Shown here: positions 1 to 2,849 of the stretch, one piece after another
Layout: every line of letters begins with the position of its first letter
How positions within the stretch are numbered: position 1 is the stretch's first letter
IMG/VR virus record: IMGVR_UViG_2563366894_000007
Source of the DNA: a virus
Lineage: Duplodnaviria; Heunggongvirae; Uroviricota; Caudoviricetes
Reading direction: 5' to 3' (one strand)
Length of the DNA: 2,849 nt
The notes under the pieces: model-generated
Database searches by the model: none
Told to the model about the DNA's origin: nothing
The model's input: only the letters and a program-made list of their open reading frames with translations
Position numbers and translations under genes: made by a program

Positions 1-201
1 GCCGCAGCCAGTTCTGCAAGCGCGGCGGCTGCTTCTGCCACTGCATCAGCTAACAGTCAAAAAGCAGCAAAAACCAGTGAAACCAACGCAAAGGTGAGCG
101 AAACAGCGGCTGCGAACTCAGCGAAAGCATCGGCAGCAAGCCAGACGGCAGCTAAAGCAAGCGAAGATGCAGCCAGAGAGTACGCAAGCCAGGCTGCGGA
201 G
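1..201 (+). repeat. Low-complexity GC-rich coding tract (degenerate Ala/Ser-rich peptide repeats) inside the fiber gene
   Basis: Dominated by GCN/AGC/TCN codons. The translation shows reiterated A-A-K-x-S-E-x-N-A / A-x-S-A-K-A-S units. Composition is visibly more GC-rich than the rest of the window. Confidence 0.65.
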
Positions 202-1518
202 CCGTATAAATATGTCTTACAGCCGCTGCCTGATGTGTGGATACCATTTAACGATTCGCTGGATATGATTACGGGCTTTTCGCCGTCATATAAAAAAATT
301 GTTATTGGTGACGATGAAATAACGATGCCTGGCGACAAGATTGTTAAGTTTAAACGTGCATCGAAAGCAACCTATATTAACAAATCTGGTGTGCTGACAG
401 AGGCTGCCATTGACGAGCCACGATTTGAACGTGATGGCCTGCTTATTGAGGGGCAAAGAACTAATCTTCTGCTTAATTCAACAAATCCATCTAAATGGAA
501 TAAGTCAGGCAATCTGGAACTCACAGAAATATCCACGGATTCTTTTAATTTTACTTATGGGAGATTTACTGTAAAAGATACTCTTATTGGTCAGACAAGT
601 GCTATTAATATCGTAACGGTTTCTGGCAGTAAAGGGTTTGATGTCACAGGTGATGAAAAATATGTGACCATTTCATGCCGTGTAAGAAGTGATGTTGAAA
701 ATGTAAGGTGTCGTTTAAGATTTGAACACCATGATGGTTATACTTACACTTTTTTGGGAGATGCTTACCTCAATTTATCAACACTTGTAATTGATAAAGC
801 TGGTACTGCTGCAGACCGTATTATTGCAAAGGCTGTAAAAGATGAGGTTACTGGTTGGATTTTCTATCAGGCTACAATTAATGCACTAGATACAGAGAGC
901 ATGATTGGTGCGATGGTTCAATACGCTCCTGTAAAAGGTTCAGGCACAGCATCTGGAGACTATCTGGATATCGCAACTCCACAAGTGGAAGGTGGATCAA
1001 GTGCTTCGTCATTTATTGTAACTGATATAACTGCAAGCACTCGCGCAAGCGATATGGTGACAGTCCCAATCAAGAATAACCTTTATAATCTTCCTTTTAC
1101 GGTTCTTTGTGAGGTACATAAGAACTGGTATAAAACGCCAAATGCAGCGCCACGTGTTTTTGATACCGGCGGTCATCAAACCGGAGCGGCTATTATTCTT
1201 GGCTTCGGTCGTTCAACAGATTACGACGGATTTCCTTATTGCGATATTGGAGGAGCTAACAGACGGGTAAACGAAAACGCATCGCTTGAAAAAATGGTTA
1301 TGGGGATGCGTGTAAAGTCAGAGCAGTCTACGTGCTCAGTAAGTAACGGGCATATATCCAGCGAAACAAAAACCACATGGTCCTGTATTCAGAACACCGC
1401 AATTATCCGTATTGGAGGCCAGACTACAGCCGGGTTACGTCATTTATTTGGTCATGTCAGGAATTTCAGAATATGGCACAAGGCATTGACTGATGCTCAG
1501 GTGGGGGAGTCAATCTAA
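1..1518 (+). CDS. Tail fiber protein (side-tail-fiber-like), 5'-truncated by the window edge; Ala/Ser-rich N-terminal linker followed by a receptor-binding region
   Basis: Frame 1 is open from nt 1 to TAA at 1516-1518, with no stop and no start codon in the first 31 codons. The GTG at 94 used by the ORF track has AAGG directly abutting it with no spacer, so it is not a credible start and the gene begins upstream of the window. The first ~67 codons are low-complexity Ala/Ser/Thr/Lys (AAKTSETNAKVSETAAANSAKASAASQTAAKASEDAAREYASQAAE), which resembles the collar/linker region of lambda-type side tail fibers as I recall it. The C-terminus ends in a LamG/ConA-like lectin motif. Confidence 0.8.
   Translation, partial: AAASSASAAAASATASANSQKAAKTSETNAKVSETAAANSAKASAASQTAAKASEDAAREYASQAAEPYKYVLQPLPDVWIPFNDSLDMITGFSPSYKKIVIGDDEITMPGDKIVKFKRASKATYINKSGVLTEAAIDEPRFERDGLLIEGQRTNLLLNSTNPSKWNKSGNLELTEISTDSFNFTYGRFTVKDTLIGQTSAINIVTVSGSKGFDVTGDEKYVTISCRVRSDVENVRCRLRFEHHDGYTYTFLGDAYLNLSTLVIDKAGTAADRIIAKAVKDEVTGWIFYQATINALDTESMIGAMVQYAPVKGSGTASGDYLDIATPQVEGGSSASSFIVTDITASTRASDMVTVPIKNNLYNLPFTVLCEVHKNWYKTPNAAPRVFDTGGHQTGAAIILGFGRSTDYDGFPYCDIGGANRRVNENASLEKMVMGMRVKSEQSTCSVSNGHISSETKTTWSCIQNTAIIRIGGQTTAGLRHLFGHVRNFRIWHKALTDAQVGESI
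1432..1503 (+). other. C-terminal LamG/concanavalin-A-like lectin signature of the upstream fiber protein (putative receptor-binding jelly-roll domain; N-terminal extent undetermined)
   Basis: The translation GLRHLFGHVRNFRIWHKALTDAQV matches the characteristic C-terminal strand of Laminin_G_3-type domains (typical form ...DEVRIYNRALSAEEI). This is recognised by eye only. Confidence 0.5.
1500..1509 (+). promoter_or_regulatory. Shine-Dalgarno for the acidic ORF (GGTGGGGGAG), 8 nt upstream of ATG 1518
   Basis: Purine-rich GGGGGAG precedes the ATG. The ATG overlaps the upstream stop (TAATG at 1516-1520), which indicates translational coupling. Confidence 0.55.
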
Positions 1519-1799
1519 TGAAAGATTTAACACTCAAATTTGAAGACAGGGCCGACTTTTCGGCCTTTATGGAGAGTATTGGCTATTATGATGACGAGTC
1601 GATGCAGGATGATATTCTTATCGACGTGATAGGTAACGTGTACAAAGAAACCGGAGAACTGACTGAAGATGGCGAACCGGTATGTGTTAAGGAAGACGGA
1701 TATTTTGTAAACGTGCGCATCATTAATGATTCGCAAATATCGTCATTATTCGATGAATACGTGGTTGCTGTTGAGCATCAACTTCGTGGCTGGATGTGA
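1518..1799 (+). CDS. Small, strongly acidic hypothetical protein (93 aa); function unknown, possibly a fiber assembly/accessory factor
   Basis: ATG start with an upstream SD, 1-nt stop/start overlap with the fiber gene, and a TGA stop at 1797-1799. By my count it has 22 Asp/Glu against 7 Lys/Arg. I see no signal peptide or transmembrane segment and do not recognise a family. Confidence 0.6.
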   Translation: MKDLTLKFEDRADFSAFMESIGYYDDESMQDDILIDVIGNVYKETGELTEDGEPVCVKEDGYFVNVRIINDSQISSLFDEYVVAVEHQLRGWM

Positions 1800-1804
1800 G
1801 GAAG
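1798..1804 (+). promoter_or_regulatory. Shine-Dalgarno GAGGAAG for ATG 1809 (6-nt spacer from the GAGGA core), overlapping the TGA stop of the acidic ORF
   Basis: The sequence reads ggatgTGAGGAAGaaaaATGg. This is the strongest ribosome-binding site in the window. Confidence 0.6.
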
Positions 1805-1808
1805 AAAA

Positions 1809-1952
1809 ATGGCTACATCGACAGTAATTCCTGATGACATCAAAACGCTAAAATCCGACGTTAGCAAATTAAAAAACGATCAAGGAAGCTACGCAACAAA
1901 ATCTTATGTAGACAACAAAACTGAAATCGTTGGTGACTGCTCTGCATTATAG
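1809..1952 (+). CDS. 47-codon ORF with strong SD+ATG, ending at in-frame TAG; most likely the N-terminal segment of the downstream fiber-tip gene rather than an independent gene
   Basis: Translation is MATSTVIPDDIKTLKSDVSKLKNDQGSYATKSYVDNKTEIVGDCSAL, then TAG at 1950-1952. It is in the same frame as the 1965..2849 ORF. The ATKSYVDNK stretch resembles fiber N-terminal segments such as P2 gpH (from memory). Confidence 0.4.
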   Translation: MATSTVIPDDIKTLKSDVSKLKNDQGSYATKSYVDNKTEIVGDCSAL

Positions 1953-1964
1953 GATCAAAAAACA

Positions 1965-2849
1965 TTGCCAACAACTGGAACTATATTCAGCGGTAAGCTC
2001 CGTTTGACACATAAGACGGCAGGAGCGGAGAACGCTTATAGTGACATATATACCAGAAAAAATATTGATGGTACTAAAGATACAATGACGCGCATCATCA
2101 TGCACGACAGCAGAAAAAACATCTGTTGGGACTTTAGTGATCTTTACGGAGGAACTTTAATTTTTCCAGGTGATGACGGATACCTCAAGATGGGTAACTG
2201 CCTCATGTCATACAGTGAGCGGGGAAGTAACGCGCTTATTAAGTTTGATAATACCGACACATTGCAGATCAAATATGCTAATCACGGGTCGACCATGACA
2301 CTAAACACGCAAGGTACGGCGTATTCTGGTGTGTCGACGTTATTATGGGGAAATTCCAGCCGTCCTGTTGTTTATGAAGTCGGTGTTGATGGTGGCGCTT
2401 ATATGTTCTATGCGCAGAAAAATACCGATAACACCTATATGTTAAGCGTTAATGGTGCATGTCATGCCACCGCATTTAACCAGCATTCCGACCGGGATCT
2501 GAAAGACAACATTCAGGTGATCGATAATGCAACCGACCGCATCCGTAAAATGAACGGCTATACATACACGCTTAAAGAAAACGGTATGCCCTATGCTGGT
2601 GTCATTGCACAGGAAGCTCTGGAAGCAATCCCAGAAGTTGTAGGTTCCGCAATGAAATATCAGGACGGTGCGAGCGGATCGGAAGGTGAAGAAGGTGAAC
2701 GTTATTACACAGTAGATTATTCTGGTGTTACTGGCTTGCTTGTTCAGGTAGCCAGAGAGTCAGACGACAGAATAACAGCACTGGAAGAAGAAAACGCAGA
2801 ATTAAGACAAAGATTATCTGTAATTGAGGCGGCGCTTGCGTCTAAATAA
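1965..2849 (+). CDS. Tail-fiber receptor-binding tip protein with C-terminal intramolecular chaperone (Peptidase_S74-like) domain; start uncertain
   Basis: Open frame from the TAG at 1950 to TAA at 2847-2849. The first start is TTG 1965, with AGGA at 1951-1954 about 10 nt upstream; the next in-frame ATGs are at 2085 and 2100. The tip motif LLWGNSSRPVVYEVGVDGGAYMFYAQKNTDNTYMLSVNG resembles the conserved C-terminal tip of P2 gpH-type fibers (from memory). The C-terminus is an intramolecular chaperone domain. Confidence 0.7.
   Translation: MPTTGTIFSGKLRLTHKTAGAENAYSDIYTRKNIDGTKDTMTRIIMHDSRKNICWDFSDLYGGTLIFPGDDGYLKMGNCLMSYSERGSNALIKFDNTDTLQIKYANHGSTMTLNTQGTAYSGVSTLLWGNSSRPVVYEVGVDGGAYMFYAQKNTDNTYMLSVNGACHATAFNQHSDRDLKDNIQVIDNATDRIRKMNGYTYTLKENGMPYAGVIAQEALEAIPEVVGSAMKYQDGASGSEGEEGERYYTVDYSGVTGLLVQVARESDDRITALEEENAELRQRLSVIEAALASK
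2487..2846 (+). other. Intramolecular chaperone / autoproteolytic C-terminal domain (endosialidase-chaperone, Peptidase_S74 type)
   Basis: Hallmark motifs are present in order: HSDRDLKDNI at the cleavage site, NATDRIRKMNGYTY, YAGVIAQEALEAIPEVV, YYTVDYSGVTGLLVQVARE, and a terminal coiled-coil-like ITALEEENAELRQRLSVIEAAL. Confidence 0.75.

Follow-up and report, generated by a model that had tools for sequence, protein, structure and literature searches.

A two-fibre side-tail-fibre cassette in a phage-21-like lambdoid prophage of Escherichia coli

Organisation of the locus

The 2,849-nucleotide (nt) stretch of IMG/VR record IMGVR_UViG_2563366894_000007 analysed here, termed the window, covers the distal half of a side-tail-fibre operon; the operon belongs to a phage-21-like lambdoid Escherichia coli prophage adjoining sitABCD. 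It is filled by three co-directional genes on the plus strand. The first gene (nt 1-1518) is the 3' part of a gene for a side tail fibre of the lambda Stf type, fibre 1, with a frame 1 open reading frame (ORF) of 505 codons plus stop that is open at the left edge. It is followed by the gene of an acidic protein of 93 amino acids (aa), p93 (nt 1518-1799), the start codon of which overlaps the fibre 1 stop (TAATG). The third gene, gene 3 (nt 1809-2849), encodes fibre 2 in a 346-codon frame with a GAGGA ribosome-binding site upstream and a TAG at codon 48. A preliminary description of the window had not mentioned the 93-aa gene between the fibres. The two-fibre cassette at this locus is ordinary and very common, and functionally uncharacterised.

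The window corresponds to L004:8193-11041 of the source draft scaffold (L and P numbers denote the loci and proteins compared) and starts directly after a run of N. Its left edge is an assembly gap within the fibre 1 gene (6.4-kb N run). The order on the source scaffold is J, lom, a 40-aa PF08400 fragment, the N gap, the window, a 97-aa protein and sitDCBA.

Fibre 1

Fibre 1 matches phrog_1419 ('tail protein') with E=2e-269. Its full-length relatives comprise 700-790 aa and start with a PF08400 tail-attachment domain, which lies outside the window; on the source scaffold, only the 40-aa fragment in front of the N gap represents it. The fibre resembles lambda Stf in its position after J and lom, in its Ala/Ser-rich shaft and in the PF08400 N-terminus of the full-length relatives. 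The order J-lom-stf was found at L004, L001 and L003 as well as in phage records. Fibre 1 differs from lambda Stf in its distal end, which is not the lambda receptor-binding end, and in its partner gene. A Tfa-type assembly protein was not found right after stf; p93 takes this place instead, and tfa is present in the relatives as truncated remnants only, further downstream.

The shaft consists of Ala/Ser-rich Stf-type repeats (nt 1-195, plus strand), with several tail-fibre PHROGs matching over aa 1-67 and repeated matches to the shafts of relatives. The distal part comprises two domains. A hypervariable beta-sandwich similar to carbohydrate-binding modules (CBM-like domain; nt 442-1047, plus strand) is related to the head spike fibre of the Rhodobacter capsulatus gene transfer agent (RcGTA). 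Residues 148-349 match the NCBIfam family GTA_spike_fiber (NF048003) with 58.9 bits at a cutoff of 36, and the solved RcGTA head spike fibre Rcc01080 (6tb9) was matched with E=6e-4. Both have the junction motif ...SS.I.T....TRA.D in common. Rcc01080, however, decorates the head of a gene transfer agent and is not a tail fibre, and it comes without LamG domain and p93. When the distal 440 aa of Stf were modelled with AlphaFold2 (AF2) using 34 close homologues, the CBM-like domain alone was folded with a predicted local distance difference test score (pLDDT) of about 90. The domain is likely the glycan-binding specificity determinant of fibre 1.

The C-terminal domain (nt 1048-1515, plus strand; end motif HLFGHVRNFRIWHKALTDAQ) was assigned to the LamG/ConA-like lectin fold by profile searches. 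The window's own match to Laminin_G_3 (PF13385) was below threshold (E=0.0012-0.0046; 17.6-19.5 bits at a cutoff of 27.6). The same family was matched at E<=0.01 by 34 of the 39 diverse homologues of the domain, with a best value of E=4.7e-13. A profile built on nt 997-1515 (the last 173 aa) found solved LamG/ConA-type folds, namely 4qvs (5.7e-6) and botulinum HCN (1.2e-4), as well as pentraxins/C-reactive protein (4e-4) and a sialidase lectin domain (6e-3). In a library-wide HMMER search, 109 relatives of the domain were detected, in which it is always located at the extreme C-terminus. The profile and homologue matches uphold the earlier statement that the upstream gene ends in a LamG/ConA-type domain. 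The label 'LamG-type' used at that time fits the conserved last domain, but the hypervariable domain in front of it is CBM-like and had gone unmentioned.

The module of CBM-like and LamG domain was also observed behind P2-type N-terminal fibre domains (PF12571/PF03406; P0197, P0215). It ends the 1,479-aa fibre of the rV5-like myovirus nimi as well, where a 110-aa p93 homologue comes next (L095:1-4333); the module thus crosses the boundary between siphoviruses and myoviruses. At locus 1 of Ecol_316 (L001:7140-9518), PGAP splits stf into two pseudogene pieces, which are separated by about 1 kb that carries no annotation. At protein level, the distal half of this stf is 100% identical to the window. 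The N run of the source scaffold (L004:1797-8191) lies inside stf, and given that stf comprises about 2.4 kb in intact relatives, the stated gap size is too large.

The intervening protein p93

p93 belongs to phrog_1361 of unknown function (E=2.5e-46), and no Pfam, NCBIfam or credible PDB relative was found for it. Homologues occur in at least 181 phage records, each of them listed beside a tail-fibre gene, and range over lambdoid phages, Drexlerviridae, dhillonviruses, Queuovirinae, T5-like and rV5-like phages. In the four loci that were opened (swan01, Baret, phage 21 and nimi), the homologue lies immediately 3' of the fibre gene, and in phage KarlJaspers it is annotated as 'putative lateral tail fiber chaperone'. 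p93 is a probable fibre assembly factor or adaptor. A role as allele-specific chaperone of the Stf end was considered after four loci had hinted at co-divergence. It is contradicted by the table of 80 loci, in which p93 copies of 89-100% identity adjoin LamG domains of 33-51% identity.

Fibre 2 and its chaperone

Fibre 2 matches phrog_4563 ('tail fiber protein') over its full length with E=9e-209, and its intact relatives comprise 346 aa. The closest of them (P0001, 89% identical) stood in for the interrupted fibre 2 in comparisons. A beta-structured segment (nt 2220-2486, plus strand) is similar to P2 gpH and, with weak matches, to T4 gp34. BLASTP of P0001 against P2 gpH gave E=4e-14 over gpH residues 439-611, equivalent to fibre 2 residues ~69-233 and including LWG.S.RPVV.E.G....FY.Q.NTDN...VNG. 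The alignment of the fibre 2 family with gpH 515-611 in hhalign reached 98% probability. No alignment with gpH was obtained outside residues 439-611; fibre 2 has no counterpart of the baseplate-binding N-terminus of gpH or of its last 58 residues. Fibre 2 also differs in having its chaperone built in, whereas P2 uses the separate gpG. Foldseek of the AF2 model of fibre 2 against the PDB gave nothing significant, with T4 gp34 as best match (E=0.1).

The C-terminal part (nt 2487-2846, plus strand) consists of a Peptidase_S74 (S74) intramolecular chaperone and a coiled coil (PF13884; PDB 6f45 with E=1e-3). PF13884 was matched at aa 227-278 with E=6.3e-14 and 52.4 bits at a cutoff of 22, and no other tail-fibre Pfam family was detected in fibre 2. 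Residues S227, D228, R229, D230, L231 and K232 (SDRDLK) are conserved to at least 90% in 30 relatives. The C-terminal PF13884 and the Ser...Lys pair five residues apart are shared with the S74 fibres K1F endosialidase, T5 pb1 and S16 gp37 (6f45). We take the Ser to mark the cleavage site, with the roles of the Ser and of the Lys five residues downstream assigned as in T5 pb1 and K1F endosialidase. Autocleavage of fibre 2 is predicted before Ser227, and the gpH-like segment would then be the distal end of the mature fibre. Unlike the other S74 fibres, mature fibre 2 would be very short (226 aa) and is variable near the N-terminus and not by the cleavage site.

The preliminary description had assigned a P2-H-like tip and a self-cleaving chaperone domain to the downstream gene. 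Both assignments are confirmed by the matches to gpH and by a Peptidase_S74 score above the cutoff, while the cleavage itself is a prediction. It was also correct in describing two non-homologous proteins of different families in tandem, as no significant similarity was detected between fibre 1 and fibre 2 (best E=0.17).

Longer relatives of gene 3 (P0020-P0025, P0042) have an N-terminal helix extended by tandem units of the TAKSDIS/TAKTNITTLQNDVK type, and the number of repeats appears to set how long the stalk of fibre 2 is. Hundreds of 254-aa entries annotated as 'tail fiber domain-containing protein' start at Met93 (P0026-P0030). They were considered as a recurrent disruption of gene 3, which was discarded after two examples (P0026, P0028) were found to start about 30 nt from the contig end. 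These loci (L005:29-793, L006:30-794) are assembly-break artefacts; assemblies appear to break where the variable part of gene 3 meets the conserved one.

The in-frame TAG of gene 3

The TAG (nt 1950-1952, plus strand) occupies codon 48, a variable column in the relatives (W, Y or K), in which they have TGG or TAT. The window was aligned to the alleles of the two Ecol_316 prophages (allele 1 and allele 3), and the sites at which these differ were considered informative. In NZ_CP018957.1, the two alleles are located at 3519632-3522480 and 3666131-3668979. At every one of the 423 informative sites, the window equals one allele or the other, and no private difference was found in its 2,849 nt. 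All three informative sites in nt 1-60 follow allele 3. In nt 61-1500, 239 of 240 sites follow allele 1 and one follows allele 3, while allele 3 accounts for 7/7 sites in nt 1501-1895 and for 2/2 sites in nt 2361-2849. The variable region of fibre 2 (nt 1896-2360, plus strand) is a fine-scale mosaic of these two known alleles. Its 171 informative sites (55 allele 1, 116 allele 3) form 55 alternating runs, many of them of one base. The stop is a chimeric codon that combines both alleles, with the A of the TAT allele at site 1951 and the G of the TGG allele at site 1952.

The mosaic patch was not found at >85% identity in 5,426 complete E. coli genomes, and an exact-pattern scan of genome contigs for the TAG/TGG patch gave no match. 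In the protein collection, the mosaic allele occurs only in the record from the source scaffold, and the 47-aa peptide in front of the TAG is recorded in one assembly (GCA_000352965.1, scaffold KB733188.1). Because of the 55 alternations, the lack of private differences, the unique allele and the N gap at the left edge, TAG and mosaic are most likely an assembly chimera, in which reads of two paralogous prophage copies were merged. The in-frame stop, which is the one unusual feature of the window, is best explained by this collapsed-repeat assembly and is thus not a candidate for recoding. The downstream protein had previously been given as 347 aa if read through. The in-frame TAG is indeed real in the sequence, but the readthrough length should not be taken as biologically meaningful, given that the stop most likely arose by chimeric assembly.

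Distribution and exchange of the modules

At least 80% of the window is present in 416 of the 5,426 complete E. coli genomes. The whole cassette was found in the isolated phages Tritos, PhiR63_1, HannyBb and 2G7b, its order is also kept in Tritos, PhiR11_1, PhiR47_1 and JenP1, and its modules occur in lambdoid, 9g-like, T1-like and T5-like phages. Among 80 IMG/VR loci retrieved via fibre 2, a homologous fibre 1 lies upstream in all but two copies, both of which are located at contig ends and have no upstream sequence. Between their two fibre genes, the IMG/VR loci have the p93 gene or a divergent version of 89 aa.

Between the two prophages of Ecol_316, all differences in fibre 1 fall into nt 462-1080 (the CBM-like domain) and all differences in fibre 2 into nt 1903-2355. 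In a set of 86 loci, 12 alleles of the fibre 1 variable domain and 4 of the fibre 2 variable segment were distinguished, and the four commonest fibre 1 alleles are each paired with 2-4 fibre 2 alleles. The variable segment of fibre 1 and that of fibre 2 assort independently of each other. Whether the modules swap independently had been raised as a question to be settled by comparison with related phage genomes, and the free combination of the 12 and 4 alleles answers it positively. The segments are sharply bounded and hypervariable, combine freely and are found in several phage groups; 'two specificities' and an 'exchange hotspot', as proposed beforehand, are therefore reasonable descriptions, with receptor binding as a function that we infer. 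Such a two-module cassette would account for part of the mosaicism of the locus. Three IMG/VR copies of gene 3 (L076, L078, L090) were observed to have premature stops in the fixed frame.

Probable mounting of fibre 2

Fibre 2 starts with a conserved N-terminal motif (MATSTVIPDDIKTLK...) and a predicted helix (nt 1809-1901, plus strand), a candidate attachment plug. Across lambdoid loci, identity over the first ~30 residues is 87-100%, whatever the alleles elsewhere, and in the 9g-like JenP1 it is 74%. The motif recurs in the otherwise unrelated 224-aa protein gp04 of swan01 (E=3e-8). A comparison by eye showed that 12 of the first 15 residues are shared between the P0003 allele (MVTKTVIP...) and the 583-aa second fibre of Baret. 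The motif was found in 47 phage records and lies 10-20 nt past the p93 homologue in the dozen with both coordinates. AF2 placed a helix at aa 9-25 with low confidence. Fibre 2 is probably mounted on fibre 1 or p93, because no recognised tail-attachment domain was found in it. The earlier idea of a docking protein or a branched fibre is consistent with these data, its support coming from genomic linkage.

The T5-like phages DT57C and DT571/2 have branched L-shaped tail fibres of LtfA and LtfB, and LtfA/LtfB of DT57C is the one precedent backed by experiments (PMC4728585, PMC10713586). These fibres bind O-antigen, and LtfB, which has no tail-binding domain, was proposed to hang on LtfA (PMC4728585, PMC10713586). 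The window likewise has a tandem pair of fibre genes that differ in their receptor-binding regions, a second fibre with no recognised tail-binding domain, and S74. It differs from DT57C, where a phiEco32 gp14/gp15-type joint is present, a small intervening gene is lacking and both fibres carry S74, compared with fibre 2 only in the window. Homology to LtfA/LtfB was dismissed, as no significant similarity was detected (best E=0.001-0.08), and the N-terminus of LtfB is unrelated to the MATSTVIP... of fibre 2. According to the BASEL paper, lateral fibres of small siphoviruses can comprise two or more proteins (PMC8594841). In the T5-like phage Baret (L093:4789-6540), LtfC, a LamG-ended fibre, a 92-aa protein and a 583-aa fibre starting with MVTKTVIPTDITKLK were observed; this two-fibre layout differs from the one of DT57C.

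A model of the two-fibre operon

The account that we favour, and that we regard as moderately probable as a whole, is a two-fibre Stf operon with a mounted fibre 2 and a stop created during assembly. Fibre 1 would be anchored to the tail tip through its N-terminal domain outside the window; its CBM-like domain probably binds surface polysaccharide and is followed by the conserved LamG domain. p93, which would be translationally coupled to fibre 1, probably serves as assembly factor or adaptor. Fibre 2 would be produced as a 346-aa precursor, in which S74 would drive trimer folding and subsequently cut at Ser227. The resulting protein of 226 aa would contain the conserved N-terminal plug, a variable middle and the P2-gpH-like end. 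The two fibres may carry independent specificities, with fibre 2 probably sitting on fibre 1 or p93. The stop in fibre 2 would have arisen in the draft assembly, in which the reads of two paralogous copies of the prophage were combined.

As a more far-reaching and tentative idea, to which we give somewhat less than an even chance, the LamG-ended fibre, p93 and the motif M[AV]T.TVIP.DI..LK (15-30 residues) may constitute a portable socket-and-plug system. If this holds true, it would enable unrelated siphoviruses (lambdoid, T1-like, 9g-like and T5-like) to carry an interchangeable second receptor-binding protein on the side fibre, by way of a joint that has no relationship to the phiEco32/DT57C type. 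No description of such a system was found in the literature searched. The O-antigen or capsule types within reach of a temperate phage, or of a delivery particle derived from a phage, are set by the side tail fibres. Two binding modules that can be exchanged independently and a short conserved plug, if real, would provide a practical handle for host-range engineering.

Several points weigh against the favoured account. In AF2, the LamG domain did not fold (pLDDT <50 on a shallow alignment), and the LamG call therefore rests on profiles; the monomer model of the fibre 2 family was poor as well (pLDDT 57). p93 and the N-terminal motif hold 97-100% identity while the fibre 1 LamG domain falls to 33%, so that the docking surface is not obviously the LamG domain, and p93 persists in phages without fibre 2 such as phage 21. 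The artefact interpretation involves the assumption that the source strain carried both alleles. Furthermore, 4 of 82 other gene 3 copies (~5%) have a premature stop in the fixed frame, and therefore a real pseudogene is not implausible a priori. The TAG would then be a genuine nonsense mutation and the mosaic a genuine recombinant, with gene 3 as a pseudogene in a decaying prophage. This is in line with the frequent decay of prophage tail genes, with the variable column at codon 48 and with the split gene 3 of PhiR47_1 (294 aa plus a short ORF; L011:5020-6060). We nevertheless consider it improbable, as 55 alternations in 465 nt, many of them single-base, without private substitutions are unlike natural recombination tracts, and the region lies in a gapped draft scaffold with an allele that is found nowhere else. 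Deliberate readthrough or suppression of the TAG to set the amount of fibre 2 is hardly credible. The frame does stay open past the TAG, but all relatives have a sense codon at codon 48, the window gave no match to an RNA family and the chimeric origin of the codon fully explains the stop.

Regarding the mounting, fibre 2 could also attach to the tail independently, e.g. to the tip complex or the tail tube, resulting in two fibre sets without branching. The conservation of the N-terminal motif irrespective of the distal Stf alleles would fit this, as would fibre 2 homologues of 73-93% identity beside Stf proteins that range from 49% to 80%. It is unlikely in our view, given that the motif is common to lambdoid, T1-like, 9g-like and T5-like phages with differing tail tips and that an upstream LamG-ended fibre and p93 are present with every motif-bearing gene examined. 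Stf, p93 and fibre 2 might instead be joined end to end with p93 as hinge, like T4 gp34-gp35-gp36-gp37. The gene order of proximal fibre, small protein and distal fibre, the co-occurrence of p93 with the fibre 2 N-terminus and the weak similarity of fibre 2 to shaft domains of T4 gp34 and P2 gpH speak for such an arrangement. However, the end of fibre 1 is already made up of two lectin-type domains, of which one is hypervariable, as is typical of a terminal receptor binder; phage 21 has Stf and p93 without fibre 2; and no similarity of p93 to a solved protein was detected. An end-to-end fibre is thus distinctly doubtful, and a fibre 2 mounted on fibre 1 or p93 is preferred.

Genomic neighbourhood

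Scans of the window for promoters and terminators, for tandem repeats and for Rfam families gave nothing above background. The closest parallel to the surroundings of the window is phage 21, with which it shares the context stf-p92-p97-sitDCBA (Stf 49% and p92 54% identical). The difference is the second fibre gene, which phage 21 does not have and which is inserted in the window. The 97-aa protein after gene 3, p97, is 95% identical to its phage 21 counterpart (L004:11084-15178; L094:3792-7273), which is annotated as a putative membrane protein with two transmembrane domains. Downstream of p97 follows the iron/manganese transporter sitDCBA, which seems to be carried by the prophage as cargo, like its counterpart in phage 21.

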